Below are positions 25,180 through 64,000 of a stretch of 64,000 bases of DNA, one piece after another. Positions within the stretch are counted from its first letter, which is position 1, and each line of letters starts with the position of its first letter. A program made the position numbers and the translations under genes. Origin of the DNA: Octopus sinensis (Eukaryota); contig NC_043003.1 of assembly GCF_006345805.1 (NCBI RefSeq), forward strand, positions 29,884,001-29,948,000. Direction: 5' to 3'. A model generated the notes under the pieces. It was not told where the DNA came from, did no database searches, and worked only from the letters and a program-made list of their open reading frames with translations.

Positions 25180-25284
25180 ATAAGCACTAACTCCACATGT
25201 AAGGAATTAGAGCAATACTATGTAATCATTGACTGTTCTGCTATTTCCTTCATTGATGCAATGGGAGCCAAAGCCTTCAAACAG
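25180..25284 (+). CDS. SLC26: SLC26 coding exon, STAS (ISTNSTCKELEQYYVIIDCSAISFIDAMGAKAFKQ)
   Basis: ttcatag acceptor, CAG|gtgag donor, 105 nt, STAS DxSxxxxxD motif. Confidence 0.88.
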
Positions 25285-25679
25285 GTGAGATATATCTTCT
25301 CTGAGAAAAACAGTTGTTTATATTTATGTAACAGTTGTTGATTTTTTTTTTTGCTGCTGCTGTTGATGTTGCTGCTGCTGCTGTTGTCTTCTTCTTCTTC
25401 CAATCAGGACTTACACCATTAGCCACAAAGAATAATCTCTAATTCAAGCCTACTCTAAGCTACTAAGAATGCGTGTGGCAACTTGAAGATCCACCCACCA
25501 CACGCAATAGACTGGCGGTTGCACAGGCGTGAAAGCTACGTTATTATCCTCATTCCGTAAACAGTGGCTTTTAACGGGTGGAGATCTGAACCATCCTGGG
25601 TTACAGAGGATTCACAATCTAGACTAGGTTCTGAAAGTTTACCACACCATAGTGGGTTACACCATGGTTCCTCTGCTTT

Positions 25680-40793: not shown

Positions 40794-43700
40794 ATAAAGC
40801 AATTAAGGATATGAAACCGGGTAAAGCCCCCGGCCCATCAGGAATCACTGCTGAGATGCTTAAAACAGCTGGTTATGCGGGCTATGGCCTAGTCACCCGT
40901 ATTGTTAACCAGGTAGTTCATAATGGAGTCATACCCAATGACTGGCGTAGCAGCACCATAGTCAACTGCTACAAGGGTAAGGGTGATGCTCTAGATAGAA
41001 ATAACTACAGGGGTATTAAACTGTTGGATCAGGTGATGAAGACCACAGAGAGGGTCATAACCCATCTCATTAGGGAGAGAATTTGCTTAGATGAGATGCA
41101 GTTCGGTTTTGTGCCAGGTAGAAGCACCACTGATGCTATATTCCTGGTCCGACAACTGCAGGAGAAGTACCTAGCTAAAGATAAACCCCTCTACATAGCT
41201 TTTGTGGACTTGGAGAAAGCCTTTGACAGGGTTCCAGATCCCTTAACTAGTGGTCGATGCGGAAACTGTTGATTGACGAATGGCTAATAAGGGCTGTACA
41301 GGCTCTATACAGAGAGGCTGTCAGCAAGGTTAGGATTGGCAACGAATATAGTGAAGAATTCCGGGTAGAAGTAGGTGTACACCAGGGCTCAGCCCTCAGT
41401 CCCCTTTTATTCATCATAGTCCTCCAGGCAATAACAGAGGAATTCAAAACAGGTTGCCCCTGGGAGCTCCTCTATGCTGATGACCTGGCCCTCATAGCAG
41501 AATCACTACCGGAACTAAAAAAGAAATTTTGGGTGTGGAAACAAGGGTTAGAATCTAAGGGCCTTAGAGTTAATGTAGCGAAGACCAAAGTTATAGTATG
41601 CAGAAAGGCGAACTCAGCACACACCCCATCGGGCAGGTGGCCCTGCTCGAGCTGTAGGAAAGGTGTAGGTAGAAACTCCATAAGATGCACCCAGTGTAAG
41701 CTATGGACGCATAAGAGGTGCAGCAACATCAAAGGGAAATTAACTGATAAGATAGCTTTCACGTGTGGCAGATGCACAGGGACAACAGACACCACAGACA
41801 CTCAAAAAACAGATTCCATCACACTCCAGGGGGAGAAACTAGAAGTAGTTGATAGTTTCCGCTACCTGGGTGACCAAGTTAGTAGTGGGGGTGGATGCTC
41901 AGAGAGTGTCACCACTAGAATACGAATAGCCTGGGCAAAGTTTAGAAAGCTCCTACACCTACTGGCGACAAAGGGTCTCTCACTCAGAGTGAAAGGTAGA
42001 TTGTATGATGCATGTGTGCGAACTGCCATGCTTCACGGCAGTGAAACATGGGCCGTGACTGCAGAGGACATGCGTAGACTTGAAAGAAATGAAGCTAGCA
42101 TGATCCGCTGGATGTGTATTGTCAGTGTGAATGCACGACAGAGTGTAAGCACCCTGAGAGAAATGCTAGGCATAAGAAGCATCAGATGCAGTGTGCAAGA
42201 GCGACGCTTGCGATGGTACGGTCATGTACTGCGGATGGATGAGGAGAGATGTGTGAAGAAGTGCCACTCCCGAACAGTTGAAGGAATCAGGGGGAGAGGT
42301 AGACCCAGGAAGACATGGGATGAGGTAGTCAAGCATGACCTCAGAGCGTTGGGCCTCACTGAGGCAATGGCGAAGGACCGAGATCTCTGGAGATGTGCTG
42401 TGACTACTAAGACCCGGGATGCTCCCGGCACCAGTTCCGCATACCCCCTGCCCATCCAAAGTACCTTGGATCCCAGAACATCTCGCTGTGCTTGAGGAGA
42501 CCTGTCGAGTCAAGTGCATATACATGAACATCGAACCAAATATCAATGGAAACAGTAGCTGTGATACCTGTGCCGGGGACACATAAAAAGCACCATCCGA
42601 ACATGGCCGTTGCCAGTGCAGCCTCGACTGGCTTCTGTGCCGGTGGCACACAAGAAGCACCATCCGAACGTGGCCGATGCCAACCCCGCCTCGAATGGCT
42701 TCTGTGCCGGTGGCACATAAAAAGCACCATCCGAACGTAGCCGATGCCAGCACTGCCCCGATTGGCTTCTGTGCCAGTGGCACATAAAAAGCACCATCCG
42801 AACGTGACCGATGCCAGCACCGCCTCGACTGGCTTGTGCCGGTGGCACATAAAAAGCACCAACCGATCGTAGGATCCCGGAACATCTCGCTGTGCTTGAG
42901 GAGACCTGTTGAGTCAAGTGCATGTACATGAACATCGAATCAAATATCAATGGAAACAGTAGTTGTGATACCTGTGCCGGTGACACATAAAAAGCACCAT
43001 CCGAACGTGGCCGTTGCCAGTGCAGCCTCCACTGGCTTCTGTGCCGGTGGCACATAAAAAGCACCATCCGAACGTGACCGATGCCAACCCTGCCTCGAAT
43101 GGCTTCTGTGCCGGTGGCACATGAACATCGAACCAAATATCAATGGAAACAGTAGTTGTGATACCTGTGCTGGTGACACATAAAAAGCACCATCCGAACG
43201 TGGCCGTTGCCAAAAAAGCACCATCCGAACGTGGCCGTTGCCAGTGCAGCCCCCACTGGCTTCTGTGCCAGTGGCACATAAAAAGCACCATCCGAACGTG
43301 GCCAATGCCAGCACCGCCCCGACTGGCTTCTGTGCCGGTGGCACATAAAAAGCACCATCCAAGCATGGCCGACGCCAGCACCGCCTCGACTGGCTTCTGT
43401 GCCAGTGGCACATAAAAAGCACCAACCGATCGTGGGATCCCGGAACATCTCGCTGTGCTTGAGGAGACCTGTTGAGTCAAGTGCATGTACATGAACATCG
43501 AACCAAATATCAATGGAAACAGTAGTTGTGATACCTGCCGGTGACACATAAAAAGCACCATCCGAACGTGGCCGTTGCCAGTGCAGCCTCCACTGGCCTG
43601 TGCCGGTGGCACATAAAAAGCACCATCCGAACGTGACTGATGCCAACCCTGCCTCGAATGGCTTCTGTGCCGGTGGCTCATAAAAAGCACCATCCGAACG

Positions 43701-43987
43701 TGGCCGATGCCAGCACCACCTTGACTGGCTTCTGTGCCGGTAGCACATAAAAAAAAGCACCAACCGATCGTGGCCGATGCCAAACCCCTCTGGCACCTGT
43801 GCAGGTGACACGTATAAAGCACCCACTACACTCGCGGAGTGGTTGGTGTTAGGAAGGGCATCCAGCTGTAGAAACACTGCCCGATCAGACTGGAGCCTGG
43901 GGCAGCCCCTGGCTCCCCAGACCCCGGTCGAACCGTCCAACCCGTGCTAGCGCGGAAAACGGACGTTAAACGATGATGATGATGATG
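40794..43987 (+). mobile_element. young 5'-truncated RTE LINE: RT domain with inserted PHD finger, one frameshift, expanded 3' UTR, (GAT)n tail
   Basis: KAPGPSGI, NYRGIKLL, VDLEKAFDRV, GVHQGSALSP, LLYADD, FRYLG; frameshift near 41240; possible TSD atatacag (40786-40793 / 43988-43995). Confidence 0.95.
42568..43825 (+). repeat. ~67-bp tandem hairpin array (about 17 units) with higher-order duplication in the RTE 3' UTR
   Basis: Unit tgtgccggtggcacataaaaagcaccatccgaacgtggccgatgcca-var-tggcttc at 42570, 42637, 42704, 42771 and onward; UTR head restarts at 42873, 43121 and 43436. Confidence 0.92.
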
Positions 43988-44351: not shown

Positions 44352-47140
44352 ATCCAAAAAATGTTGCTGTACATATTAATTATATGCTATTGAATAAACT
44401 TCCAGGAGAAATATTCACTTATAACTCAATTAACAGTGTTGTTGATTAGAATAGTGTTAATTACCCCATCGAATTTTTGAACTCACTACAACCTCTAGGT
44501 ACAGCTCCTTACTGTCTTTAGCTGAAAAAAGGGACTCCTACTATGCTATTACATAATTTGTCTCAACCAAAATTATACAATGGTACAAGATTAATTGTGC
44601 ACAAACTCATGAGGAACTGCAGTGAGGCAAATATTTTCACTGGTTGTGGTAAAGGTGGGGCCATCTTCATTCCTCACATACCAGTTATGCTACCTAATGT
44701 CCCATTCCAATTTAAGTGGTAATTTCCTATCCGAGTTTCTTTTGCCATGAGCATTAATAAAAGTCATGATGAAACACTAAAAGTTGCTGGATTGCAACTC
44801 GAACAACCATGCTTTTCACATGGCCAACTGTATGTATGAGGATCACGTGTGGGAGTGAAGCCAAATCATTTTGCTTATGCACCCCAAAATAAAATAAAAA
44901 ACATTGTTCATAAAGAAATATTTACTCTTAATACAACATGAATACTTCAATGTTTAATTTGCCACTACTATCATTACTTTTAAGAATGAGTAAATTACCT
45001 ATTTAAATGAAGTGTATTATATAATTGCCACTGCTATACTGATAAATAAAATAATACATTCAACTTGCTTATTATCATATAATAAACAAACAGAAGTTCA
45101 TATATGAAACTAATCTTTTTCTACTTCAATTATCATATGAAATCAAGGCTTTCAAGAGATCAATCAACTGAACTATTTGCAGAGCAGCTTTTGAAACTCG
45201 GAGTAGAGTTAGTCACAATTGATGAAGAACAGTTTCATACACTCAATCCAATATGTAATTCAACTGATTCTATCGATGGATGTATCTTGGTGGATGAAAT
45301 CTTTCCTAATCTTCTTCATAATTACAACAATACAGATTGGATCTGTGAGCGACCTATCCTAGCTCCAAAAAATGTTGCTGTACATAGCATTAATATGCTG
45401 TTGAATAAACTTCCAAGAGAAATATTCATTTATAACTCAATTGACAGGGTTGTTGATGATTAGGATAGTGTTAACTACCCCATTGAATTTTTGAACTCAC
45501 TACAACCTCTAGGTACAGCTCCTTACTGTCTTTAGCTGAAAAAAGGGACTCCTACTATGCTATTACATAATTTGTCTCAACCAAAATTATACAATGGTAC
45601 AAGATTAATTGTGCACAAACTCATGAGGAACTGCAGTGAGGCAAATATTTTCACTGGTTGTGGTAAAGGTGGGGCCATCTTCATTCCTCACATACCAGTT
45701 ATGCTACCTAATGTCCCATTCCAATTTAAGTGGTAATTTCCTATCCGAGTTTCTTTTGCCATGAGCATTAATAAAAGTCATGATGAAACACTAAAAGTTG
45801 CTGGATTGCAACTCGAACAACCATGCTTTTCACATGGCCAACTGTATGTATGAGGATCACGTGTGGGAGTGAAGCCAAATCATTTTGCTTATGCACCCCA
45901 AAATAAAATAAAAAACATTGTTCATAAGAAATATTTACTCTTAATACAACATGAATACTTCAATGTTTAATTTGCCACTACTATCATTACTTTTAAGAAT
46001 GAGTAAATTACCTATTTAAATGAAGTGTATTATATAATTGCCACTGCTATACTGATAAATAAAATAATACATTCAACTTGCTTATTATCATATAATAAAC
46101 AAACAGAAGTTCATATATGAAACTAATCTTTTTCTACTTCAATTATCATATGAAATCAAGGCTTTCAAGAGATCAATCAACTGAACTATTTGCAGAGCAG
46201 CTTTTGAAACTCGGAGTAGAGTTAGTCACAATTGATGAAGAACAGTTTCATACACTCAATCCAATATGTAATTCAACTGATTCTATCGATGGATGTATCT
46301 TGGTGGATGAAATCTTTCCTAATCTTCTTCATAATTACAACAATACAGATTGGATCTGTGAGCGACCTATCCTAGCTCCAAAAAATGTTGCTGTACATAG
46401 CATTAATATGCTGTTGAATAAACTTCCAAGAGAAATATTCATTTATAACTCAATTGACAGGGTTGTTGATGATTAGGATAGTGTTAACTACCCCATTGAA
46501 TTTTTGAACTCACTACAACCTCTAGGTACAGCTCCTTACTGTCTTTAGCTGAAAAAAGGGACTCCTACTATGCTATTACATAATTTGTCTCAACCAAAAT
46601 TATACAATGGTACAAGATTAATTGTGCACAAACTCATGAGGAACTGCAGTGAGGCAAATATTTTCACTGGTTGTGGTAAAGGTGAGGCCATCTTCATTCC
46701 TCACATACCAGTTATGCTACCTAATGTCCCATTCCAATTTAAGTGGTAATTTCCTATCCGAGTTTCTTTTGCCATGAGCATTAATAAAAGTCAAGATGAA
46801 ACACTAAAAGTTGCTGGATTGCAACTCGAACAACCATGCTTTTCACATGGCCAATGGTATGCAGGAACATTATGTGTGGGAGCAAAAGCAGATCTTTTTG
46901 CTTAAACACTGCAAATAAAACAAAAAACATTGTTTCTAAAGAAATATTCACTCTTCAATAACTTAATTTACCATTACTATCACTACATTCAAGAATGAGT
47001 AACTTACCTATTTAAATGAAGTGTTTTATATAACTGCCATTACTGTATTGATAAATAAAATAACACATACAACTCATCATATAATAAACAAACAGAAGTT
47101 CACGTATGAAATGGATCTTTTTTCTACTTCATTTATTACA
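44352..47140 (+). pseudogene. tandem triplication (~1013-bp period) of a decayed Helitron Pif1-helicase C-terminal fragment
   Basis: RPILAPKN, YPIEFLNSL, LYNGTRL, FAMSINKS, CFSHGQLYV motifs with shared stops; identical ORFs at 45104 and 46117. Confidence 0.9.
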
Positions 47141-47593: not shown

Positions 47594-49105
47594 AATGGCA
47601 GACCGTCACCACACCCTCATTCCGTCTTTTTCCTTCTTTTTTTTTAAAGAATCGCACATTTTCGGCTACGGAGATTCCGAATCTGTAAAGAAATTTGCAT
47701 TTCAAAATTTATATAAAACAACGCGTTTTAATCGATGGCGAACAATAAAGTTTGAATAAAAGCCTTCTTTGAACTGGTTTATGACATTTTGGTGGTCAGG
47801 AGTTAAAAGTAAACATTAAAGGAAAGACTTCCTGGATCTTTTCGGTTTGAACGGCAGTTTTTTAAAATAATTTCCACGTAATTAAACACTTTTAAACTTC
47901 GTATACTGGTAGAATGTGTTTATAAAACATCTTTTTCTCTTGGCTTTATTGAGAAAATTCTATAGTTTGTAAGATATTTGTTGTTGTTTTTTCTTCAATT
48001 TCTGCAATTTCAACCAATCAATGACGTCTATTGAGGTAAAAAAAAAAAACATTCTGTGCCGTATGAATATGTCCCTCGTTTAAGAAACAGATTGGGTTTA
48101 TTAACATTTGTGAAGAAAAAAAGATACCCTCCCCCCTAACCCTAAAACAGATTGAAATGCAATAGATCGATACTAGGGCCATAATTATGGGTGACAATTT
48201 CATGACACCACTAGAAAAAACTGCCGTTCAAACCGAAAATTTCCTGCTTTAAAATGAGTAGACATAAAAAATTCGGGAACAAGGTTGAGAAGGTTATGAA
48301 AAATGAAGTCGGGGTGGGCTATCAAACAGTAGTTCCGTCTGCCATATAAAAAAAACCGGATTTTGGTCAGTAATCTAACAATTTGTTTCATTTTTTAATT
48401 AAATTTTGACTTGATATAAAAGCTTGACAGATAACTTTCTATTATTTATCTCTATGTTATATTATATATTTATTTTCATTCATTATTTACCTTAAATACG
48501 TGTTGGGTGCTGAAATGTTTCTAGCTTTGGATAACAGAAAATACAGGAGAATCGGTTAATTATGATTTTATTTAACATATTTCCGTCAGATTCACACACT
48601 TGTTGCAGCGGCCCTTCAGTTTTTCTAAGTCCTGTAAGTCGGAAGGTTGGCCTCCAACTAGGCCTTTCGCGACACCCTTAACGTCAAGAACTTTTCAACA
48701 CTCCGTCGTATATCGAGTTTAAAAATAAATTACGGAAATATGGACATTATTCGATATCTCCAAGCGGACATATCAGACGAAAATTAGGTATCTGTTTTCA
48801 ACATTTTACCTCGCCCAGTAAAAAAAGTTTTGAAACTTTTAATTTCCCCGACTACCCGGGACAATATGCCTTTAACTTTTAGGTGGGGGTTACACGTTTA
48901 AAGATACGGAGATTACAATTTTGTAAAAAAATATTTTCCACTTTCGTTTCCTGATCATAAAACGAAAAATACCAAGAAAACACTTTGTTAAAAGGTTTTA
49001 TTTATTTTGGAGATGGATAATGATGTTCAATATTTTCTTAATAGTTTTTTTACAAAAATAAATCCATTCAAATGAAAAAAATGTCCAAGGAAAATTGAAA
49101 ATCAA
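47594..49105. repeat. non-coding block A, direct paralogue of block B (53898-55140 continuing at 59351-59363)
   Basis: Colinear shared text (cacattttcggctacggagattccgaatctgtaaa; ataaagtttgaataaaagccttctttgaactgg; aaacgaaaaataccaagaaaacacttt). Confidence 0.88.
47834..48239. mobile_element. MITE copy 1 (GGATCTTTTCGGTTTGAACGGCAG TIR), right end slightly deleted
   Basis: TIRs seen; absent at the paralogous position in block B (aaacttcctgc at about 54596). Confidence 0.88.
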
Positions 49106-49528
49106 CTTTTTCACAAAGTACATGATGTGTAAACATAATATATTGGTCGCATGGCCTAAAACAGACAGTACCGAGTTCTCAAATTAGATGTCCCTACCGT
49201 ATGGGGAAAGAAAAAGGTTATAGGAGTAAGGGGAAAAAATTAAATGTCAAACATTAAAATTCATCATAAAAAACAAAATTCAGAATCACAATTACCAGAA
49301 TATTAAAAACCTAAGGTGGGAAAAAAAGAAAAACATACCTTTTTCTTTACCCCCCAAAATAGGGACATCTTTTCCGAACCTCACACATAATTATGCAAAT
49401 ACATTTACAATTATTAAGAACAATCCATATCAGAGGCGTAACAAGATGGGAGACACCGGTGCGAAAAGAAACAAGATTTCTCCTCCTGACTTACCATAAG
49501 TATTAAATAAGGCGACAAAGTCAAATGT

Positions 49529-50308
49529 CTACCCCTTTGCTGAATTACCAATAGAATCCTTCCATATCTCATGTTCTCTATACTTTTTGTTTATATCACG
49601 AATTCTTATATTTGACTCGTTTAAATTCTCCGGAATAGTAGTAAGCTTTAGAGCTTTGAGGAAATTCTTTCCATCGGTATGATGGTTTTCCCGACCTTTG
49701 AATAAAACCTCAAGCCTCTTGCGCCAGTCAAACCTATCTACAATTCCTTGTTTCTCATCACTTTCGGGGCAAGGATATTTATGATCGATTATGTAGAAGT
49801 AATAAGGAATTCCTAGCCAACGCGCGACATCCTGAGGTGGAAAGTTATTTTTTTCAAAAAGCTCTCCAATATGTAAAATCATTTCGTTTGTAATTTGAAA
49901 GGGGTCCTTGTACAGTTCCCATTGACAGAAAGTTTTTTCGCGAATTTTGTGGTCATGTTCATTTGGGTAAGTCTTAACCTTGTCTTCCCATGTCCTCCAG
50001 TTTTCGAGCAAATGTCCTATGCTAGTTTCTTCTTTTTCGTTCTTCACGCAAGGTTCGAGCCTTTTCTTGATTTCATCCAAGATACTTTTATCTGAACATT
50101 TACCGCGGGTATCGATGAAAGCAGCGAAGGCGAATACAGGTATTAAACGGACCTTATCAGAGCAGAGAAAGAACTCTTCCATAGTCTTGATAGCAAGAAA
50201 ATCCAAACCAAGTTGGATTGAGACTCTAAAGAGGGACTTAGGGTCAGCCAGTTTCTCAGACATCTTTTGTAAATTTTCATAAGAAAACATACAACTATTG
50301 TTTGCCAT
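49529..50308 (-). CDS. uninterrupted ORF, 259 aa, putative two-death-fold-domain protein
   Basis: 780-nt open frame in AT-rich DNA, start context aaccATGG; homologous to the 61955-63394 ORF; helical L..la..l....a..LG pattern occurs twice; fold is inferred. Confidence 0.7.
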   Translation of the reverse strand: MANNSCMFSYENLQKMSEKLADPKSLFRVSIQLGLDFLAIKTMEEFFLCSDKVRLIPVFAFAAFIDTRGKCSDKSILDEIKKRLEPCVKNEKEETSIGHLLENWRTWEDKVKTYPNEHDHKIREKTFCQWELYKDPFQITNEMILHIGELFEKNNFPPQDVARWLGIPYYFYIIDHKYPCPESDEKQGIVDRFDWRKRLEVLFKGRENHHTDGKNFLKALKLTTIPENLNESNIRIRDINKKYREHEIWKDSIGNSAKG

Positions 50309-51739
50309 GGTTGGAAAAAAAAAATTAAACAAAACTGTGTAGACACCAAGGAAATGATTGACGGTCTGTGCCAGTAAATATCACTCCAGAAAATTTATCA
50401 AATCGAATAAGTTAGATTGTTGGGCTCATCCAGTTGTAAGTGATGAATTTAAATGCTTTTAATAAAATAAAGTTATTCGTTGTAAAAGTGAAAAAGGTGG
50501 CAGTGTGTCTGAAAATATAGAAGAACGAAGACCAGTGAAGAGCATTACTTAAATAGCTGCGAAATGAATCTCGCCAATATTTTTTAGTGATAAACGTTTA
50601 GTATTTACACGACTTCCGTGAATAGAAAACAAAAAAAAAAACTTACGTCATTAAAACAACAAAAATAACTCGTTTCACAAAATATAACCTCCGGAAGCTT
50701 TCGCCTGTGTCCGATATTCTACGGTATGTTCCGGAGTATAACCGCTATTAAAAAAATAGTAGAGGCAGTAAAAAAAAAAGATTTTAAAAGTAACTTTGGA
50801 TGATGACTTGTATTAATGACATATATTTGGCTTTAAACTTAAATAAAAGTAAAATCGAAGTGACATTTCTTGACTAGCCTACATATTTCGGTTAATGTTT
50901 AAAAGCACACCATTTAGATTAACCCATATTTCTAACACATAACCTGCATAAGTGGATATGTATGTAGATGTTAACTGAGTATATATAGCCTGAATATGTC
51001 AATTGGACTTATATAGTCTTATATGCATGCATACATAGAGATTACCTATATCGCTAATGATAGAAGTCAAAAAATACTTCTGTACAACCAAATATTCACA
51101 AATCTACTACAGGCAAGATAGGTCTTACCTCAAATGGGTACTCATATATAAATATTTCCTGTGGATGTTGACTATGTATACTTAACATTAATAGTGTAGC
51201 TACATACTATAGGTATTAAGCTTGTGTTATTTATTCCTTGCTATAATACTCTAATACAGCAAATTTATGGGCATACCTGTGGCGGAGACGAATCCCCCCT
51301 CCTACTTCGTTTTTTAATTTGTTTTTTTTTTTTACGGAAACCCACATTTTCGGCTATTGAAATTCTGATTTTGAAAAAAAATGGCAACTTCAAAATTTCA
51401 ATACCCACTTCATTTTTCACTTTCTTCAGAAACCTTTTTTTTTTTTTTTGGCGAAATACGGAAATTATGATTCTGAAAACAAATTGTTTGTAAAATTTCA
51501 ATTTTACAAAAAAAAAAAAAATTTAATTACCCCCAAACCCCTCTCCTCCCGATTTACGGCCTTCAAGCAGGATACCCACATGCTAGAAATAACAGCCAAA
51601 TCTCACAGATACTCTTATCAGTCTTTGCATTTCCCTTGGATAACATTGGTGGCATGGTGACGGTAGGCTGGAACGCATGGGTGACTGCCGGTCTTCTATA
51701 AACAAATTTGCCCAGACTTGTATCTTGGAGGGGGACTTT

Positions 51740-52178
51740 GGATCTTTTCGGTTTGAACGGCAGTTTTTTAAAATAATTTCCACGTAACTAAACACTTCTA
51801 AACTTCGTATACTGGTAGAATGTGTTTATAAAACATCTTTTTCTCTTGGCTTTATTGAGAAAATTCTATAGTTTGTAAGATATTTGTTGTTTTTAGCACT
51901 ACAACCGAAACTATGCCGTTGTTTTTTTCTTCAATTTCTGAAATTTCAACCAATCAATGACGTCTATTGAGGTAAAAAAACAACATTCTGTGCCGTATGA
52001 ATATGTCCCTCGTTTAAGGAACAGATTGAGTTTATTTACATTTGTGAAGAAAAAAAAGTTACCCTTCCCCCTAACCCTAAAACAGATTGAAATGCAATAG
52101 ATCGATACTAGGGTCATAATTATGGGTGACAATTTCATGACACCGCTAGAAAAACTGCCGTTCAAACCGAAAAGATCT
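51740..52178. mobile_element. MITE copy 2, 8-bp TSD, GG-starting TIR (Merlin-like)
   Basis: gggacttt|GGATCTTTTCGGTTTGAACGGCAG ... CTGCCGTTCAAACCGAAAAGATCT|gggacttt. Confidence 0.9.
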
Positions 52179-52391
52179 GGGACTTTCTAAGTGTAATCTC
52201 ATGGTCATTCATGACCAAAGGAGATTTTTACCCTTTTCTCCTTTTTTCTAGATATCCTCTACAAAAACCTGCACTACCGCACTTCCTTCTCATAGTTTAT
52301 TCCTTTGTTCACTGGCATGAAGCTGACGCCCATTTCACAGGATTTGTAGTTCTGCGAAGTTCATGGATGTTAGATGGGTACTACTTGAGAA

Positions 52392-52686
52392 CAGTGGTCC
52401 CGGTGCGCGCACTCGCGTAGTCGCGCATCCGCGCTAGCTAGTCGTGACTAGTCGATCCTACAACGACTACCTAGCAAAGTAAATAAAACACAAAATAAAT
52501 AATTTTTTAACACAAAATAATTTTTGTTAAACAAAGTAAATAAAACACAAAAACACAAAGTAAGGATCGACTAGTCATGACTAGCTAGCGCGGATGCGTG
52601 AGTGCGCGGATGCGTGAGTGCGCGGATGCGTGAGTGCGCGGATGCGTGAGTGCGCGGATGCGTGAGTGCGCGCACCGGGACTACTG
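52392..52686. mobile_element. CpG-rich MITE-like palindromic element with a 16-bp tandem repeat in the right arm
   Basis: cagtggtcccggtgcgcgcactc / gagtgcgcgcaccgggactactg termini; 5 copies of gcgcggatgcgtgagt; no clear TSD. Confidence 0.75.
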
Positions 52687-52776
52687 TTTCTAGCACGTCT
52701 CACGATAACCCTCCTCGTTTCTTTCTCTCTCTTGCATGTATTGATGTTTTTCAATATTTTTCTTCCCATAAAAACA

Positions 52777-53720
52777 TGTAGCGGACTCTCTCTCTCTCTC
52801 TTTCTCTGTTATATATACATGAATACGGACGTAGTAGATAACAGCTAGCCTTCGGCTACTTGGAACCTGTTGTATCCACTACTCTGATTGGTTGGTATTG
52901 GCGCAGTTTGTCTCTTGCTCTGTTACACGCCAATGTGCAACCCAACCAATCGCAGCTTTCTGATAAGGTCACGTGAGACAGTCTTTTCTAAACCTCAGTT
53001 GCGCCGATTGAATGGTATAAAAAAGCTAGTTTCAACACCGTATTTCATCTTTCGGTTAGTCTAGACCTTCTAAGGTCTAACCACTGACCACAGAGCACAC
53101 AGCCAGTTCCAGCGACAACACCAGCAGCCACATTGGAGACTCAACATTCATCCAACAGCATACAGCAATCTCCATCTCCGTCATCAACATCTCTACATAC
53201 ACCGCAACCAGCAACCGTCGCACAGGTTTTATCTCAACACTGTTCGTGAATTACTTCACCATGGTTAACAGCTAATACAACCTGCGAGATGTGTATCAAG
53301 TAACCGGCACTGCATAGTAGCCACAGTTTCCCGCACGCCTTGTGCCTCAATCGGCTCTGCTTCTTCGCCACAACTTCTTGTTACAGGACTTCAACTATCG
53401 CGTACCTTGACTACGAACTGGTATTTATTCATCCTTGTGTCTGAGCATTCTTCTAGCGGTCCTATTATGGACTCTTTCTATGCTCTGTATTTTAATGCAC
53501 ACACATACACATGATGTATACATGACGGCCTGTCTATTGTTATTATTATATATGTACTTATGACGCACACACAAACACACACGTTAATTTATCAATAAAA
53601 TCTTCTCTTAACATTCTATCGGTTGTGTCGTCTCTTTTCCTTCTGGCACTGATACACATTTATTCTTTTCGCATCTCTTGTAAACGACCGTGCGGTGTAT
53701 TAAAGGAGCTGATAGACGGA
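52777..53720 (+). mobile_element. possible solo LTR / promoter-bearing repeat
   Basis: Starts TGTAGCGG; CCAAT boxes, GGTCACGTGA E-box, TATAAAA at 53016, AATAAA at 53594; right end and TSD not found. Confidence 0.5.
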
Positions 53721-53897
53721 CACTGTCTTTATTTAACGTAAAACAATACGCTTAAATAAGAATATAAGAAATAAACTTGACTTCTCTCACAAACGAGAAT
53801 ACTAAAAATGAACGCGACCCCTCTCAAAAATTAAGTAAAAAGAAAATGGAAAAAATAATCCAGTATCCTTGTCCGGTACCTGATCGATCCGACGGAC

Positions 53898-55140
53898 ATG
53901 GCGGACCATTGCCATACCCCCATTCCACACCCCCTTTTTTAAAAAAAGAAACCCACATTTTCGGCTACGGAGATTCCGAATCTGTAAAAAAATTTACATT
54001 TCAAAATCTATTTATATAAAAGTGAGGTTGTGTGGTGCCTGTCTCCTACGATTTAGATTCCTTACTCCCACATTTTGCGGTGCAGTTTAACCAAAAGCGG
54101 GTATCTTATAGTCGTGATTCATATCGAGCCCTTCTGAGTATTAGCGCGCTTCTACGATGAGTCTACGATTTTAAAAAAAAATTACCATAATTTTTCCGCA
54201 TTTTTAATGCATTTTCGCTCGGTTTATATAAGGGAAGTAACTCTCTAAAAATGTATTATTAAATCTCAGAACGTAAAAAGCTACAGTAACAACCCCCTCG
54301 TTGTGGTTAGCCATATTGAGATGGCTATTATACTTTACATCTCTAAAAATGCTTATATAGTTATTTCCCTTACAAACCCGAGCAACGCCGGGCGATACTG
54401 CTAGTTTAATATAAAACAACGCGTCTTAATCGTTGGACAGCAGTGATTAACCTATTAGATGGCGAGCAATAAAGTTTGAATAAAAGCCTTCTTTGAACTG
54501 GTTTATGACATTTTGCTGGTCGGGAATTAAAAGTAAACATGAACCAATGTATGTGTTAAAATTACTTTAAAAAACCACCCTCGATTCAATGATACAAACT
54601 TCCTGCTTTAAAATAGGTAGACATAAAAAATTCGGGAAGGTTATGAAAAACTAAGTCGGAGGTGGGGCATCAAACAGTAGATCCGTCTGCAATACTAAAA
54701 ACCGGGGTTAATGTTTACAACGGGTCGGATTATTCAAAAGCTTGACAGAAAACTTTCTATTATCAATCTCTACGTTATATTAAATATTTATTTTCATTCA
54801 TTATTTACCTTCAATATGTGTTGGGTACTGAAATGTTTCTAGCTTTGTGTAACAGAAAATACAGGAGAATCGGTTAATTATTCTAAAGTTTTCAAACTTT
54901 TAGTTTCCCCACACACCCGCCTACTTTTAACTTTTATGTGGGGGTTACACATCTAAAGATACAGAGATTACAATCTTGAAAAAAAAAATCCACTTTCATT
55001 TCGTGTTCATAAAACGAAAAATACCAAGAAAACACTTTAATAGCTTTTATTTGTTTTGGAGATGGATACTGATGTTCAATATTTTCTTAAAAGTTTTTTT
55101 ACAAAGATAAATCCGTTCGAACGAAAAAAATGTTAAGGGA
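53898..55140. repeat. non-coding block B, paralogue of block A, interrupted by a Helitron and the Gypsy element
   Basis: Colinear with 47594-49105; homology resumes after the Gypsy (aagtgaaaatcaa). Confidence 0.88.
54007..54404 (+). mobile_element. non-autonomous Helitron, copy 2
   Basis: A|TC...CTAG|T; empty site ttcaaaa|tttatataaaac visible at 47701-47720. Confidence 0.92.
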
Positions 55141-55433
55141 TGTGGGATGACGTCAGCAGCCGGACGTCAGCAGCGGGGTGCGTTGACCGGAAGCTGGGGC
55201 AAGCGGAAGGGGTCAGCTGTCAAGCGTGCGTAGGGGGTGGAAATTGACTTTTCCAACGTGGGTCGTGCTGGGGACAAGACGTGCGAGGACGTCGCTAAAG
55301 GGTTTGGGGCCAGCAGCTGCTATCGTTAGTGTTCGGGTAGGGGCTGTGAGGAAGGACCAGTCATCTCTGGAGGATCTCCGTCACCGCGAAGAGAAGGTAG
55401 GTGCCTCTATATTCAAATCGCACACTCACTACA
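55141..55433 (+). repeat. 5' LTR (293 bp)
   Basis: Identical by eye to the 3' LTR except for one extra 14-bp repeat gacgtcagcagccg. Confidence 0.95.
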
Positions 55434-55445
55434 AGCTATTTCGGC
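55434..55445 (+). promoter_or_regulatory. atypical primer-binding site AGCTATTTCGGC, complementary to the 5' 12 nt of tRNA-Phe
   Basis: Flush with the LTR end; reverse complement GCCGAAATAGCT equals the start of metazoan tRNA-Phe(GAA); no TGG. Confidence 0.75.
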
Positions 55446-55478
55446 AGTTCGTAAACATTCTCATTTTTTTTCAACACG

Positions 55479-56241
55479 ATGTCTGCAAAAATTAGGATCG
55501 CCAGTGACGTCGTCAGACCTTTTAACGGCGAAGGCGATGTAGTGGCCTGGATTCGGAAAATCAGGCTGGTGGCGAGACTGCAGGGCATAAGCGACGTGGC
55601 GAGTCTTATGGCGCTGTATTTGGAAGGGAGTGCGTTGTCGCTTTACCTAGAGATGGATGAAGAGGAACGGCTCTGCGATGAGAATATAGAGCGGCGCTTG
55701 TGTGACGCATACACGGAATGCGAGTACACAGCTTTCGCTAGGCTAGGTGCAATCAGGTGGACGGGAGGCCAGGTGGATGATTTTGCATCGGAAGCTAGAA
55801 GGCTAGCGACTCTGCCGGGTTTGCCGGAGAAGGACTGGAGAGAGCAGCCCGACTGGCGTTCGTGAATGGGTTCCCCGACGATGTAGGGATTCACCTACAA
55901 CGACTGCCCGGGGTCAAAAAGATGCCATTGAGCGAACTTGTAGCTCATGCTCGGCGTTGACGAGACACTCTGGGCGGAAGGCGATAGCGATGGCTGTGAC
56001 GGAGGCGCGTAAAGACGGACGACGTCCCGAGAAAGAGGTACAGAAGCTCACCGTGCAACGAGAGCGGCCGTTCTCAGGACGGTGTTTTAGATGCCAGGGA
56101 CCGCACATGGCGCGGGACTGTACGCAGCCGGGGCCCGTTTGCTATCGATGCAGGTAGACAGGGCACATTGCCCGTGATTGCGGCCAGGGAAACGACCGCG
56201 GGGAAGTTGCTGCCTCTCGAACTTTCCCCTCAAACGAGTAG
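55479..56241 (+). pseudogene. gag: Gypsy gag with two zinc knuckles (two frameshifts, one stop)
   Basis: PFNGEGDVVAWIRK; CFRCQGPHMARDC and CYRCR*TGHIARDC. Confidence 0.88.
56187..56232 (+). promoter_or_regulatory. -1 programmed ribosomal frameshift signal
   Basis: G GGA AAC slippery heptamer in gag phase, pol in the -1 frame, downstream stem ggggaagtt/aactttcccc. Confidence 0.8.
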
Positions 56242-59053
56242 AGGCGCTATTGGAGACGCTGCCATTGATTGACGTGGAGGCCGAGGGGGAGACGTTCGAG
56301 GCCCTTGTGGATACGGGCTGTACGACCACCCTGGTGACTTCGAGGGTGACGAAGGAATGGAACGGGGTGTGTAGTGTCCGGGCGGTCGACGGCAGCGAAA
56401 TCCGTTGCAGAGGCAGCAGCAAGGTAGAGATAGTGGTGCGCGGCGCGACGCTAAGGCTACAGGCAATTGTGGCCGAACGCGTGATAAATGGAGTTGATGT
56501 GGTGATGGGGATGGACGCCATCAACTGCCTCGGTGGCGTCAGTGTTGTGGGAAATGAGGTCACGTTCGGAAGCGTGGGGGCGTCGTGCACTGCGAGTCAG
56601 GATCGCCAGAGGAAGCAGAGCCCCGCGAGGGACTGCGCCGCTTACACCATCGAGGACAAAGACTTTCAGGCGGCGTTCGATGGTCAGCGGTGGACGATAG
56701 AGTGGAAATGGAAGGACGAGCCCCCGACACTGGAGAACAGGGTGAGCTGTTACCAGCATACACTGAAAGGCCACGCCAGGATTGAGTTTGAAGACGAGGT
56801 GGAGAGGTGGATCGAGGAAGGGGTCCTTGTCCCTTGGAAGGAGGAGGTAGCGGGCGGAGTGCTACCCCTGATGGCGGTGGTGCAGCCTACGAAGGGAAAA
56901 GTCAGACCGGTGCTGGACTTCAGGGAGCTAAACCAGCACATATCGTGTCACACGGGAGGTGAGGCGACAGACGTTTGTGGTGAGGCATTACGTAAGTGGA
57001 GACAGTCGACTGAGGCAGCGACGATTGTCGACTTGAGATCGGCATACTTGCAGCTCCATGTGAGCGACAAACTATGGCGATATCAGCTGGTGCGGTACAA
57101 GGGCTGGACGTACTGTCTAACCAGGCTGGGTTTCGGGCTGAATTCCGCTCCGAAGATCATGGCGGCAGTGCTTAGGTCCGTCCTAGGGAAAGACGGCAAG
57201 ATTAGAAAGGCCACCAGCTCCTACATTGACGACATTTTGGTGGACGAAACTGTAGTGCCAGCCGACGAGGTAGTTAGACATCTGGAGAAGTTCGGACTGA
57301 TTGCTAAGCCACCGGAGTCGATTGAAGGGGGAGCCGCGCTGGGGCTGAAGCTGCGAAGAGATAGATCAGGTGAATTGGTGTTCCGGAGAGGAAATGAAAT
57401 CCCAGAGCTGAGTTCCAGCGTCAGCAGGAGAGAGCTGTTCTCGGTGTGTGGGAAGTTGGTCGGTCACTACCCGATCGCTGGATGGCTGCGCACGGCGTGT
57501 AGTTACACCAAGAGATGAGCAGAAGGAGAGAGGTGGGGCGACAAGGTGGGAGAAGGGACGGTGGCGATGATGCAGGAGATCCTAGAGAGGACAAGAGCGG
57601 AAGACCCGGGGGGAACTGGTACGTGCCCAAGACGAAATGCGGGACCGTCAGGTGTGATGCTAGCAGTATAGCGATAGGGGTGGTGTTGGCAATCGAAGGC
57701 ACTGCGGTGGAGGACGCGGCCTGGCTTCGGAAAGCAGATGATTTCAACCACATCAATGTCGCCGAATTAGACGCGCTGCTGAAAGGGGTGAACTTGGCCT
57801 TGAAATGGGGGCTGCGCACGATTGAAATGCGGACGGATTCGGCCACTGTGCTTGGCTGGGTAGGATCGGTGATCACCGGTGACAGGAGAGTGCAGACGAA
57901 AGGTGCTGCGGAGATGTTAGTGAAGCGCGGTCTAGGAGTTCTAGGTGAATTGATCGCCGAATTCGGACTGAAGCTGAACGTGGTTTTCGTGCCTTCGGAG
58001 AAAAACAAGGCGGACGTACTGACCAGGGTGAAAAGGGCGTGGTTGGAAGAACCGGAGGAGGCCCAGAAAGGGATAGCTGCGGCGTGTCGGTTGGATGACT
58101 CTGAACTGAAGAAACTGCACGCTATGCATCACCTGGGTGTGGACAGGACCCTGTATCTGGCAAAAAAAATTGATGCTGACGTCACCAGGAGAAGCGTCCG
58201 GGAGGTGGTCGGGAGCTGCGACAGGTGTCAGTCCATCGACCCTGCTCCGAGTGGGCATGAGCAGGGAAGCCTTTCCGTGGAGCAGAACTGGAAAAGGCTA
58301 GCTGTGGATGTGACACACTACCGTCAGCGAATGTACCTCTCCATGGTCGACTGTGGGCCGGGCCGGCTGGCCATTTGGAGGGAGTTGAGATCAGGCATTG
58401 CTGACGAGATCGTGCAGATCCTGAACGGGATATTTTTAGAGAGAGGTCCCGTGGAAGAACTACTGATGGACAACGGGGCGGCGTTTCGTTCGGAAGCATT
58501 GAGGGTTATGCTTGATCGGTGGAACGTGCGACGCTTGTTCAGAGCAGCGTATAGGCCGGGCGGTAACGGGATCGTGGAGAGGCACCATCGGACAGTCAAG
58601 GCCATAGCGGAAAGAGGGCACATTTCGCCGCTTGAAGCAGTTTTTTGGTACAACTTGTCTCCCCGATCCGGACAAGCTGAGGAATCTGTGCCGCAGAGAG
58701 CTGTGTTCAAATATGAATGGAGGCACCCGAGCAAAGCGCCGGAGGGTCACGAGGAAGAGAAGGGACCCGTTCGCGTGAAAATAGGGGAGGAAGTCTGGGT
58801 CAAGCCACCGAAGGCGCGCTGTACGTCTCAATGGAGCAGAGGAACGGTGACGGCGATCAATTCCAGAAGCAACGTATCCGTAGATGGCACACCACGACAT
58901 GTCTTGGACCTTCGCAGGATTGTTGCTTCGACGGACGATGATTCGGGAGAGGGGGAGAATGAGGAGCCCAGCTTGAGAAGATCTCGACGAGCAAGGCGCT
59001 CTCCCGGTTGGATGGTAGACTACAACATGGAGCGGAGAGATTGTGATCTTTAA
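56187..59053 (+). pseudogene. pol: Gypsy pol (protease, RT, RNase H, integrase), interrupted at about 57516-57610
   Basis: ALVDTG, RPVLDFRELN, YIDDIL, CDASS..AEL..TDS, HHCC, D-D(35)E (VDVT, MDNG, IVER). Confidence 0.93.
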
Positions 59054-59066
59054 GATCAGGGTGGCG

Positions 59067-59345
59067 TGTGGGATGACGTCAGCAGCGGGGTGCGTTGACC
59101 GGAAGCTGGGGCAAGCGGAAGGGGTCAGCTGTCAAGCGTGCGTAGGGGGTGGAAATTGACTTTTCCAACGTGGGTCGTGCTGGGGACAAGACGTGCGAGG
59201 ACGTCGCTAAAGGGTTTGGGGCCAGCAGCTGCTATCGTTAGTGTTCGGGTAGGGGCTGTGAGGAAGGACCAGTCATCTCTGGAGGATCTCCGTCACCGCG
59301 AAGAGAAGGTAGGTGCCTCTATATTCAAATCGCACACTCACTACA
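59067..59345 (+). repeat. 3' LTR (279 bp)
   Basis: Direct repeat of the 5' LTR, preceded by a weak purine tract agggtggcg. Confidence 0.95.
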
Positions 59346-59363
59346 AGGGAAAGTGAAAATCAA

Positions 59364-59848
59364 GTGGGGAGAGGACTTCGGAAAATTCACCAGGTCCGAG
59401 CTTTTCCCTAATAACTTTTAGGAAAATGGGATTTTTTTCAATGAAATTTTATAGAAATACCTTTCAAACGGCATACATTACGAATATAAAGAAATTTGTG
59501 GGGGAATTCTTGAGGTGAGGAGGGCACTTTCGGAAAATTCCCAAGATCCGAATTTTTCCTCGTTCTATTCCGAAATCACATTTAACTATCTACAGATACC
59601 CTAGCGTATGTGTTTAAATCTACCCACTTTCAATCATTTTTAATGTTTTCGCTTCAGTCTTATTTCATTTTCAATTATTTATACGCTCTTTTAACACTTC
59701 ATCGTTATTCTCATTCACTCATTACTTTCTCTGTATCTATCTATCTATATATATATTATATAAATACATATATCATATACATACACAAATATATATGTCA
59801 TGAAGGAAAAACTTGGATCTTGTGAATTTTCCGAAGTCCTCTCCCCAC
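59364..59848. mobile_element. inverted-repeat element (MITE-like), arms about 45 bp
   Basis: gtggggagaggacttcggaaaattcac / gtgaattttccgaagtcctctccccac; a third diverged arm copy at about 59520. Confidence 0.7.
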
Positions 59849-60159
59849 CCTCCCGTTGCTTTGCACGCATTTTTTTTCATATTCGTTTCCTACACATTGT
59901 TTTACACCCATCCCAGTATTTTTTCTTTTTTCTTTTCTTTTTTTTTTATTATTGATTTTCATTTCCGGTTCAAGATATAAACATTAACCAAAAGTTTTTT
60001 AAAAAAATGCATTTTTCAAGGTGAGGTGCGAAACTGCATTAGCCCCATTTCAGTCAAGCTGTTGAAACGTGAAGCTAACGGTTTAAGAAATACTCCTAAT
60101 TGGCAAAATTACAGTATGAGTACCGTTACTGTCACACACACACATACATGCAGACATAC

Positions 60160-61115
60160 ATATACACATACATCGAGTAAAAAATTCCAGTTATCTCTTT
60201 CTTTCACACATACTAACAGAAGCACTTCACTTACACAACATACTGTCTCCCACACCCCATCAAACACACACACACACACACATGTACATCAATGCTTCCC
60301 CTGGACGGTAACTTCAAAAGAACTTCCCTCGTCATACAATCGCTTTCTCTTAGTCTCTTTCGCTCTCATTACTTATGTAAAAAAATTTGGTAATCTTTCG
60401 TTTTAACTCGAAATAATGTAAACACTGAAACGGCCATACATACACACACATAGATACATATACACACACATACATGCATACATACATATACACATACATG
60501 CATACACACGCACGCACTATAAAAACCGAGTAAAAAATTTCAGTTATCTCTCTCTTTCACACATTACTCTCTCTGTCTCTTCACACACACTAACAGAAGC
60601 ACTTCACTTACACAACATACTTTCTGTTTCCCATACCCCATCAAACACACACATGTACATCAATGCTTCCCATGCACGGTAACTTCAAAAGAACTTCCCT
60701 CGTCATACAATCGCTTTCTCTTAGTCTCTTTCGCTCTCATACTTATGTAAAAAAATTTGGTAATCTTTCGTTTTAACTCGAAATAATGTAAACACTGAAA
60801 CGGCCATACATACACACACATAGATACATATACACACACATACATGCATACATACATATACACATACATGCATACACACGCACGCACTATAAAAACCGAG
60901 TAAAAAATTTCAGTTATCTCTCTCTTTCACACATTACTCTCTCTGTCTCTTCACACACACTAACAGAAGCACTTCACTTACACAACATACTTTCTGTTTC
61001 CCATACCCCATCAAACACACACATGTACATCAATGCTTCCCATGCACGGTAACTTCAAAAGAACTTCCCTCGTCATACAATTGCTTTCTCTTAGTCTCTT
61101 TCGCTCTCATTACTT
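60160..61115. repeat. ~370-bp tandem repeat, about 2.6 copies
   Basis: caatgcttccc at 60290, 60661 and 61031; copies nearly identical. Confidence 0.9.
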
Positions 61116-61954
61116 CAAAAGTTCCCGCAAGCCCATATGCAAAAAAATAAAAGTTTTTTTACGGAAATCGACGGAAAAGTATACTAGAACCGTAAGATTG
61201 CCGAATAGGCATTAAATAAAAGAACTAGAAATCTAAACTTAAAATATTTTATTATTTTCAGTACAGAAAATTATCAAATTAATTCAACACTGTTCATGGT
61301 CAATTAATATTTTTGCAGGTGTCAATTGAATAATTGCAAAGAAAAAATGGGAATGAAGGGGGGGGGGGTAGACGAGGAAGTATAGAAACAAAAATATTAC
61401 TTTAGTTTCATAGTGAAATTGATGGAAGAGGAGAATCTGTTGAGTGGATTAGGAAAAAGTGATTTACATAGAGTTGTAATATTAAATGAAGTATAGACGA
61501 TGAAATAGTTGTAATAACTTCAGAATGAGATGCTATAAATTTTTGTGAGTTCAGGTTTGCTGTGATGTAGAACGAGGGAGGGAGGTGATCTACATATATA
61601 TGAGCAACATTATAGTTCAAAGCATATTTTGTCGTTGTAAACGATTCGGATATATGAAATGTTTTTTTTTTTTTTTTTTTTTTTTTTCGTAATGACAGTA
61701 AACATCTATATATTAAAGTAGGGAAATAACGAAAAGCCTAAAGGGAAGAAAGAGAAAGGAAATAATATATAAACTGGAACAGAAATATCAGGGAGGTGAA
61801 AGGCACAAGAATGTAAAAACAGCGGATGAAAAATTATAAATGTATCCGAAACAATTCTTCACAAAATCAAAATTTGTAAAACTAACAAATCGATGCTTAG
61901 TAATCATTTAAAAATAACAGAAAAGACAAAAGGGTGAATAAAAAATTCAAATCC

Positions 61955-63394
61955 CTAAAACATGCTATTGATGCTAGGGCCCTCAATAGCATATACTCTT
62001 GTTGTGACGTATTTACCTTCCTTCTGTATTTCACGGAACTTTGCGAAGCCTTCATAATTCTTGTGGAGCAGATATTGGTCGAGAGTAAGAGCAAATTTCT
62101 CTTCTGGCCACTTGGCTCTCCATATGCATAGGACCCGGAAAGTACGTAGCCAACGGCAGTTGGCAAATTTCCTTTCTAACTCTATATTGTGATCTCTAAG
62201 ACTGTGTAACATATCTCCTTTCCACATGCGATTTGAATCAACGACCCGAATCAGATTAATTAAATATTGATCAGTAAACAGTCTCTCATCATATTGAACG
62301 TTACATTTGGTGTGTGCTGTGAGATTTCGTTTCACCGGTAGAAAACAATTTATAAGTCTGTGTGAGAACAATTGTCTCAGCTTTTCCTCCCAGCTTCTTA
62401 TCTCCTGGTCCTCTTTAGAATCCATGAGATAGCCCTTTACGGTAGAATATATTTTGATTAATTTAAACAAAGGGTATTCGACGAATTTTGGTGTTTCGGT
62501 TGGATATTCAGGAAAACGTTTCTTTTTAGTAGAGCTCTGTTTCTCATCAGAAGTAGAACTCTGTTCATTATCTGGGGAAAGAGTTTCTTGATTTGTCGAT
62601 GTTACTTCATTTTTCTTTGGTGAATTTTCATTTATGATCTTATAAGTGTAGTGTTTAGTTGCATGTTCTTCGAATGCTTTCAGTTTTTCCTCATAATCCC
62701 TTTTTTTCTTTACTCTTGTAAAGTAGTCATCGATATCATCCAAACAGAGAATGTGTTTATAGCGTTCCAATTTAGTTTTCTGCTTTATAATCTCTTCGAA
62801 CAATGCCAAACAATCGCCTTTCCTTTTATTGAACTCCTCTAATAACCATCTCATGAAGTGATCTTCATATTTATCACGAAAAGTACAATCCATAGTGTAT
62901 TCGTAAGTTTCTTTCTTTATACGTGCCTTCAAAGTTTTTTGGGCTCCGCGTGGACAGCCAAATATATTGAAAGGCCATGACGACAGCTTTAAAACTTCTC
63001 GTACTCTTCGGTAAAATCTAAAATCAGTTTCATTTGGATTCAAAGCGAGATAATTACAGATAAATTCGTAAATTGCATCATGAAACATCGAATCTGCCTT
63101 TCTATCGTAATCGATATGAAATATCCCAGTAAAACTATTCACTGCCAGTTCAGAAAATCCAAGCGTATATCCTAATCTAAAAGCAACATCACGATCGTTA
63201 ATGCTGTCTGCCCACTTCCGTATATTTTCGTGCGTGAAGAAACCTTTGTATTCTGTGCAATTCATGGCAATAACAACATCTTCCTGTTCCACAGGACTTT
63301 CCCAAAACTTTATTCGGTATTTTTCCGCATCCTCAAGAGTTGGCCCTTTTGCATTCTCATCGTTTGGCCCAGACCACGTCTCTTGTACTTCCAT
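61955..63394 (-). CDS. uninterrupted ORF, 479 aa, putative N- and C-terminal death-fold domains with a charged coiled-coil linker
   Basis: 1440-nt open frame, start context aaaATGG, upstream acceptor tccctttag; ungapped similarity to the 49529 ORF; TFRVLCIWRAK resembles a death-domain helix; fold is inferred. Confidence 0.78.
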   Translation of the reverse strand: MEVQETWSGPNDENAKGPTLEDAEKYRIKFWESPVEQEDVVIAMNCTEYKGFFTHENIRKWADSINDRDVAFRLGYTLGFSELAVNSFTGIFHIDYDRKADSMFHDAIYEFICNYLALNPNETDFRFYRRVREVLKLSSWPFNIFGCPRGAQKTLKARIKKETYEYTMDCTFRDKYEDHFMRWLLEEFNKRKGDCLALFEEIIKQKTKLERYKHILCLDDIDDYFTRVKKKRDYEEKLKAFEEHATKHYTYKIINENSPKKNEVTSTNQETLSPDNEQSSTSDEKQSSTKKKRFPEYPTETPKFVEYPLFKLIKIYSTVKGYLMDSKEDQEIRSWEEKLRQLFSHRLINCFLPVKRNLTAHTKCNVQYDERLFTDQYLINLIRVVDSNRMWKGDMLHSLRDHNIELERKFANCRWLRTFRVLCIWRAKWPEEKFALTLDQYLLHKNYEGFAKFREIQKEGKYVTTRVYAIEGPSINSMF

Positions 63395-64000
63395 TTTACT
63401 TAGGATTTTTTTAATAATAAAACTTTTCTAAAGGGAGATAACTCACACGCTTTGGGCGTGGAAACAAAGTTTGACCTGACTTAAAGTGTCGAATTTTCTC
63501 AGAAATGCATAGTTTTTTACGAAATTTTGTCGAGGTAAAAGTTACAATTTTGCTGATGGCATTAAAAATCTGGAGGGGAAAAGGTTTCAGATCATTTTCT
63601 TCCACATGGTCATAACTAAACTACATGGTCATAACTACAGCGCAATTCCCCACCACCAACAGCAAATTTGTTTCCTCATAACTTTCTTAAAAACGTATAT
63701 TTTCTAATGAAATTTTGCCGAGATACATTTTCAAAGATATAGATTATAATTATATTAATGGGGAGTTTCGGAATTATATCCTCCATGCAGGTATAACTAT
63801 GGCGCGATTCCCACTTCCACCACCACCACCATTTTCAAGGATACAAATTATAATCACCTGAAATGGCGGACCTGGCGCACAGTTACCCCGCATATTTTCT
63901 TATATAACATATAAACATGTACATCTTTTAGAAAATTGTCATTTTATAACACTTTGCTGGCAAATTTTTAAATTAACATAAACATTTATTTAAGTGAAAG

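Follow-up and report, generated by a model that had tools for sequence, protein, structure and literature searches.

Two expressed octopod orphan genes of Octopus sinensis as candidate death-domain adaptors, one of them with divergent alleles

A 64,000-nucleotide (nt) stretch of the Octopus sinensis genome (NC_043003.1, positions 29,884,001 to 29,948,000; hereafter the window, in whose coordinates positions are given) carries two single-coding-exon genes on its minus strand, whose products were studied here as candidate death-domain proteins. The open reading frames (ORFs), ORF1 (49529..50308, 259 residues) and ORF2 (61955..63394, 479 residues), were both intact, as described in the initial annotation of this DNA, and the chance expectation of such open frames is 4.5 x 10−5 (ORF1) and 8 x 10−13 (ORF2) per window.

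Expression was followed in sequencing runs selected by similarity to ORF2, of which 7 of the 24 listed were aligned; none is annotated as RNA, and RNA nature was judged from coverage and splice joints. Contigs of runs X1, X4 and X7 spanned both coding regions without a joint, with unique flanking bins near zero. Single joint-free contigs covered the coding sequence of ORF1 in X1, X4, X8, X14 and X15 (piecewise in X7) and that of ORF2 in X1, X4 and X7. All six RNA-like runs, from six studies and chosen via ORF2, covered ORF1, and X16 behaved as DNA, its coverage continuing past the genes. Splice evidence was obtained for ORF1 only, as two GT-AG joints in its 5' untranslated region (UTR). One removes a 384-nt intron (50745..51128, minus strand; joint 50744/51129) and leads to an upstream exon in one X8 contig at depth 174, and the other, a minor form, removes 138 nt (50509..50646, minus strand; joint 50508/50647) in one X15 contig at depth 7.5. 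No splice joint was seen at the 5' end of ORF2 in the run contigs aligned. ORF1 and ORF2 are transcribed single-coding-exon genes, an earlier proposal that the joint-free contigs over the coding sequences and the GT-AG joints of ORF1 bear out. The 3' UTR of ORF1 was placed at 48995..49528 (minus strand), with an AATAAA from 49006 and contigs ending at 49025 (X1), 49009 (X8) and 48995 (X14), a weak hint at the 3' end, as an X15 contig extends beyond 48900. Upstream of ORF2, ten ATGs were counted on the minus strand in 63395-63814, where contigs of X1 and X4 give coverage, and the depth of X7 upstream of 63393 falls from 244 to 6; the 5' end of ORF2 may differ between species or tissues. An A26 tract 270 nt past the ORF2 stop was considered as a retrogene tail and rejected, as contigs extend past the tract and it has no AATAAA in front.

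Homologues were found in octopods only, in line with the lineage restriction suspected from the sequence. Those of ORF1 are P0003 (Octopus vulgaris, 92% identity) and P0004 (57%), and those of ORF2 are P0005 (66%) and P0006 (Argonauta hians, 37%). For ORF2, only P0005 and P0006 emerged when 1.84 billion representatives were scanned in full with HMMER, and its exact protein was absent from a collection of 15 billion proteins, and a word-indexed profile search confined to lengths of 141-483 residues found no further ORF1 homologue. Identity was highest on the candidate domains, with 96% and 51% to P0005 and P0006 over residues 49-138 of ORF2 versus 33% and 12% in its tail, and 72% to P0004 over residues 137-210 of ORF1 versus 39% in its tail, a pattern that suggests purifying selection. 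In the genome G000 (2.72 Gb), the ORF1 and ORF2 queries and the homologue queries each found one match, the gene itself. The four protein queries revealed no further copies in G000, where a match at E 5.4 was dismissed, nor in the surrounding 464 kb, best candidates only being scored, so that the many-copy family initially envisaged was not borne out. No viral or transposon relative was found in Pfam, homologue, viral-structure and viral-contig searches, as had been expected of these proteins; one viral contig (L080) was rejected as a 10-residue search-pattern match within a helicase-like frame.

The 36-residue segment by which the two proteins had been considered paralogues is present as quoted, with 11 of 36 positions identical, and gave a BLASTP E value of 2 x 10−4 and a Smith-Waterman score of 62 that was matched by 5 of 2000 shuffles. 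Four other homologue pairs were weaker, their scores being reached by 36, 154, 400 and 699 of 2000 shuffles, and taken together these values show a similarity that is modest yet beyond chance. Profile-profile comparison of the N-terminal units of ORF1 (D1a) and ORF2 (D2a) gave an E value of 6 x 10−4, and the alignment of five D1a and D2a sequences extends over ~90 columns with 7 invariant positions. The second helical units, D1b and D2b, also exist as quoted; they matched neither each other (E 0.17) nor the first units (D1a-D1b, 0.77; D2a-D2b, 0.30). Because the second units do not match, we limit the paralogy to the N-terminal unit.

The likely architecture of ORF1 is two death domains joined by a linker. 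D1a, a likely death domain homologous to D2a and with death-domain profile scores, occupies residues 7 to ~113 (49970..50290), and D1b, another likely death domain, residues 137 to ~245 (49574..49900), with a conserved core and residues 211-231 variable between alleles. A variable block formed by the end of D1a and the linker lies at residues 103-134 (49907..50002). ORF2 is read as a death domain followed by a helical middle region, a linker that is flexible and possibly a second death domain. D2a, a predicted death fold, corresponds to residues 49-166 (62897..63250), followed by the conserved middle region (residues 167-255, 62630..62896; 65% and 24% identity to the homologues), a linker rich in S, T, E and K whose length varies between homologues in alignment A2 (residues 256-300, 62495..62629), and D2b, a possible death domain with weak profile scores (residues 369-455, 62030..62290; 67% and 40% identity). 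All these features are on the minus strand.

The death-fold superfamily is recognized by a six-helix bundle of death-fold topology. D2a was the sole unit folded alone, and its AlphaFold2 model (predicted local distance difference test score, pLDDT, 69.5; predicted template-modeling score 0.63), with five helices confident, was taken to have this topology. The top match in a structure search was the death domain of FADD, at ~10% sequence identity, and one superfamily, the death fold, filled ranks 1-18 and 43 of the 50 rows. Ankyrin G (Z 6.9), p84/THOC1 (Z 6.7) and UNC5H2 (Z 5.8) stood beside FADD, and PIDD-complex, TRADD death-domain and vFLIP entries were among the matches listed. These results make it very probable that D2a is a death domain.

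For the sequence tests, a death-domain profile was built from 16 death-domain matches in G000, and a second one by replacing a near-duplicate with a further locus encoding a CARD and a death domain (CARD-DD); a CARD profile came from 14 of 15 fetched CARD loci, one mis-extracted frame being left out. In local hhalign comparisons with the two death-domain profiles, D1a scored 18.9 and 19.7 and D1b 18.3 and 20.8, values reached by none of 100 shuffles each; the 20.8 of D1b was the highest local score of the four units and covered 50 columns across helices 1-4. D2b scored 13.3 and 15.7 (reached by 8 and 3 of 100 shuffles), and D2a 12.2 and 12.4 (9 and 11 of 100). As D2a, the structurally supported unit, scores lowest by sequence, the profile test appears to be conservative. 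The CARD profile compared with the death-domain profiles as a control gave 15.4 and 19.1, two segments of the ORF2 middle region were at background with death-domain and CARD profiles, and no unit gave a CARD signal, all scores lying within those of shuffles. In global mode only D1a exceeded the shuffles, D1b being reached by 10 of 100. Tryptophans in helices 2 and 4 and an RxD at the start of helix 6 are described as classical death-domain marks in part of PMC8195603; in D2b, all three sequences carry the helix-4 Trp and two of the three a helix-2 Trp. On this evidence we regard D1a as probably a death domain and D1b as rather probably one, and for D2b the chances seem even. The death fold originally assigned to both proteins is thus upheld by structure prediction for one of the four units, D2a, with weak sequence support for D1a and D1b, and is doubtful for D2b.

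Allelic variation of ORF1 was compared between the runs, whose organisms bear the coded labels A and B. Run X15 (A) equaled the window sequence over 1721 nt, and X8 and X14 (B) differed from it at 7 and 5 sites. X1 and X4 (A) and X16 share an ORF1 allele with indels and 18 coding substitutions, 15 of them amino-acid changing. Eleven of the 18 fall in residues 103-134, all changing the amino acid, 17 lie outside the domain cores (P 1 x 10−6), and 8 lie within 45 nt, a clustering reached in 6 of 20,000 permutations. On the contigs with this allele, coding differences amounted to 2.3% versus 0.3-0.4% in the flanks (P 7 x 10−4 and 2 x 10−5). The linker type of P0003, named O. vulgaris, occurs in X1 and X4 (A) and in X16, and the window type in X15 (A) and in X7, X8 and X14 (B). 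K221D is present in X1 and X4 (A) and in X8 and X14 (B), and N230K/E231K in X1 and X4 (A) and in one X7 haplotype (B); one X7 haplotype carries all P0003 changes in residues 214-259. Alleles are favored over a hidden second copy because each run among X1, X4, X8, X14, X15 and X16 yields a long contig of a single type, bearing in mind that contigs can drop variants. ORF1 carries unusually divergent alleles that are probably shared between two species, the sharing being read from the coded labels of seven runs, among which X16 is labeled B and resembles A at ORF2. A comparison of 18 differences in ORF1 with 2 in ORF2 (P 5 x 10−7) was set aside, as the runs had been picked by ORF2 similarity. Old divergent alleles in the linker and domain ends of ORF1 would fit diversifying or balancing selection on exposed parts.

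Death folds interact homotypically and assemble into signaling complexes. A protein with one or two death folds and no enzyme could serve as a bridge, as FADD and CRADD do, or as an assembly blocker, like CARD-only and pyrin-only proteins. The ORF1 and ORF2 proteins may bind other death domains as adaptors or competitive decoys, in which case a two-headed protein would connect one death domain upstream with another downstream or, alternatively, cap the growth of a death-domain assembly. Candidate partners are the FADD- and CRADD-like proteins of octopus; sections of PMC11463336 report FADD and CRADD in molluscs including a cephalopod, and a portion of PMC4199593 deals with haemocyte MyD88, IRAK and TRAF6. 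We lean, by a little more than an even chance, towards enzyme-free death-domain adaptors or decoys acting in immune or cell-death signaling, and favor host defense because the ORF1 alleles are divergent.

A number of observations weigh against this interpretation. Regarding the fold, the sixth helix of D2a was not resolved (pLDDT 46-53), its best Z scores (7.1-7.3) lie below the caution line of the tool (8, or 13 for helical bundles), Foldseek found no match to the model at E ≤ 0.001 among PDB or viral structures (best 2.3), and the limits of D2a were chosen with the death-domain idea in mind, only the best model being searched. An AlphaFold2 model of whole ORF1 failed (pLDDT 42), a fold search with it, uninformative at that score, matched no death fold, and the ESM Atlas model of ORF1 (pLDDT 0.35) gave no usable match. 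By sequence, D2a is at background and the reversed control of D2b (14.1 and up to 17.1) scores higher than D2b itself; hhalign probabilities were 0.5-12%, and shuffling columns is a permissive null model where proteins are helical, with 6 segments tried against 2 profiles. HMMER with the octopus death-domain profile never exceeded 1.7 bits for any stretch. When 6 whole proteins and 6 segments were scanned against Pfam, all matches were weak and unrelated (E 0.03 or worse), none reaching the PF00531 cut-off, and the locus is absent from the 16 genome matches. PDB sequence searches with the proteins and with profiles A1, A2 and A3 found no death fold, the best match being BBS9/PTHB1 (E 0.024). 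The classical marks are mostly absent, D1a and D2a having no Trp in helices 2 or 4 (a conserved Phe is nearby) and no RxD being seen by eye in any unit. Regarding selection, the pN/pS ratio (nonsynonymous to synonymous) between alleles was 1.25, not different from 1 (P 0.50), synonymous sites were raised too (P 0.03), and the clustered changes could stem from one conversion event. Finally, death domains also serve non-immune scaffolds, and ankyrin, UNC5 and p84 are among the top matches.

One alternative, which we consider rather unlikely, is that the two proteins serve as death-fold scaffolds for purposes other than immunity and apoptosis, as membrane-skeleton, guidance-receptor or nuclear adaptors, and that loose linker constraint, together with ancestral polymorphism or introgression between closely related species, explains the ORF1 alleles. 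It would account for ankyrin G, p84/THOC1 and UNC5H2 tying with or coming near FADD in Z, for a pN/pS near 1 with raised synonymous differences, for one copy of each gene with no expansion, and for positive signals in all six RNA-like runs, which fit broad expression. However, the variable coding blocks of ORF1 diverge ~6 to 8 times more than the non-coding flanks of the same allele, which exceeds what loose constraint alone gives, and the proteins have no attached ankyrin, ZU5 or membrane portion. Quite unlikely, in our view, is that the death domain is confined to the N-terminal unit, with unrelated helical sequence making up the remainder and the two genes sharing a domain but not a full duplication history. 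That D2a is the sole unit folded, the unmatched unit pairs, the failure of D2b against its reversed control and the 10 of 100 shuffles reaching D1b in global mode would agree with this, but D1b has the top local score (20.8, 0 of 100) and the helix-4 Trp of D2b is retained in all three sequences. That the fold match reflects a common helical arrangement, and that these are octopod orphans of another helical fold such as a domesticated mobile element, is very improbable given one superfamily holding ranks 1-18 and 43 of 50 rows, the agreement of the independent ORF1 sequence scores with a death domain, and single-copy genes with no transposon or viral relative.

As death-domain adaptors, ORF1 and ORF2 would resemble FADD (DED plus death domain) and CRADD/RAIDD (CARD-DD), which are likewise small, with two death folds and no enzyme part, and G000 contains intronless CARD-DD frames of similar size. 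In contrast to FADD and CRADD, they are ~10% identical to the FADD death domain, have no Pfam match and were found only in octopods; CRADD/RAIDD has an N-terminal CARD, whereas the units studied here show no CARD signal, and ORF1 matched octopus CARD-DD frames only at E 0.12. These frames belong to at least five CARD matches at G000:C14:63.80-63.87 Mb (L053, L056, L071-L073), where three fetched frames are CRADD-like intronless CARD-DD proteins of 217-226 residues. At G000:C18:47.07 Mb (L077), a single 406-residue frame combines a CARD with a caspase-like domain in which D, in place of the usual G, comes after QACR; we take it to be an intronless CARD caspase.

Sequence searches described in a section of PMC11463336 found no TRADD or PIDD in lophotrochozoans, so that hidden adaptors like ORF1 and ORF2 could fill such roles, although no TRADD-N, LRR or ZU5 domain was detected in them and there is no evidence of orthology. 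The primate CARD-only and pyrin-only proteins (COP, INCA, ICEBERG, POP1-3), among which POP2 is a likely retrogene according to parts of PMC3775265 and PMC3056782, are, together with viral FLIPs, likewise death-fold-only, lineage-restricted competitive regulators. They stay near a parent gene, whereas ORF1 and ORF2 have no detectable parent and are death-domain-like; moreover, unlike CARD-only and pyrin-only proteins, ORF2 is conserved between Octopus and Argonauta and has ~250 further residues. Divergent alleles shared across species are described for fungal polymorphic cell-death and NLR genes in portions of PMC13449251 and PMC12881547. Those genes are receptors or executors with sensor repeats, whereas ORF1 varies in the linkers of a likely adaptor.

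The fold itself is known, and what is new is an octopod-only protein with two putative death domains that is invisible to sequence search and has divergent alleles. Mollusc death-signaling inventories are based on BLAST and domain scans, as sections of PMC11463336 indicate, and such inventories miss ORF1 and ORF2. If the adaptor interpretation holds, extra cephalopod death-domain adaptors exist among orphan genes and a structure-first orphan screen would find more, and the ORF1 alleles make diversifying selection directly testable in an animal that lacks adaptive immunity. A bolder version, which we think unlikely, is an octopod death-domain module hidden from sequence search, with two double-death-domain proteins pairing mutually or with death-domain sensors and one of them subject to balancing selection over the long term, its alleles predating the species. 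ORF1 would then be a candidate for determining self/non-self or pathogen evasion in cephalopods, and it would follow that reported lophotrochozoan losses of death adaptors can be failures of detection. Literature searches, with supplements and subscription papers outside their reach, found nothing on ORF1, ORF2 or the four homologue accessions, nor on octopus orphan genes with a death domain or Foldseek-found divergent invertebrate death folds, and only unrelated work on tandem death domains.

Between the two genes, and part of neither, lies a young long terminal repeat (LTR) retrotransposon (55163..59347, plus strand) with two 273-nt LTRs that are 100% identical; its sequence indicates a very recent insertion there. 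Protease, RNase H-like and integrase Pfam matches occur in separate frames, with gag and pol split, and the ends inspected are devoid of the usual clean target-site duplication. The early statement that every transposon ORF nearby is broken holds for the few elements examined (an LTR element and a long interspersed nuclear element, with split reading frames), except that the LTR element between the genes retains frames of 446 and 512 codons. At 44353-47136, a block of ~1013 nt is present in nearly three head-to-tail copies (95-100% identity) and holds two identical 119-residue frames with no Pfam match; either a recent duplication or an error in assembly could explain it. Units of 67 nt and 370 nt (the latter in 2.5 copies, 95% alike) form tandem arrays at 42568-43782 and 60194-61115. 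On the other strand, and convergent with ORF1 and ORF2, an SLC26 sulfate-permease gene extends into the window, with exons near −15 kb (L041:4863-5501) and 25.2 kb; nesting of the two ORFs inside it is unlikely, with its STAS exon at 25216-25332 (plus strand) and its last exon unmapped. Long C2H2 zinc-finger ORFs, at least 12 of them and each in a single frame, form a cluster at G000:C7:29.968-30.148 Mb (L005-L022), starting ~21 kb upstream of ORF2.

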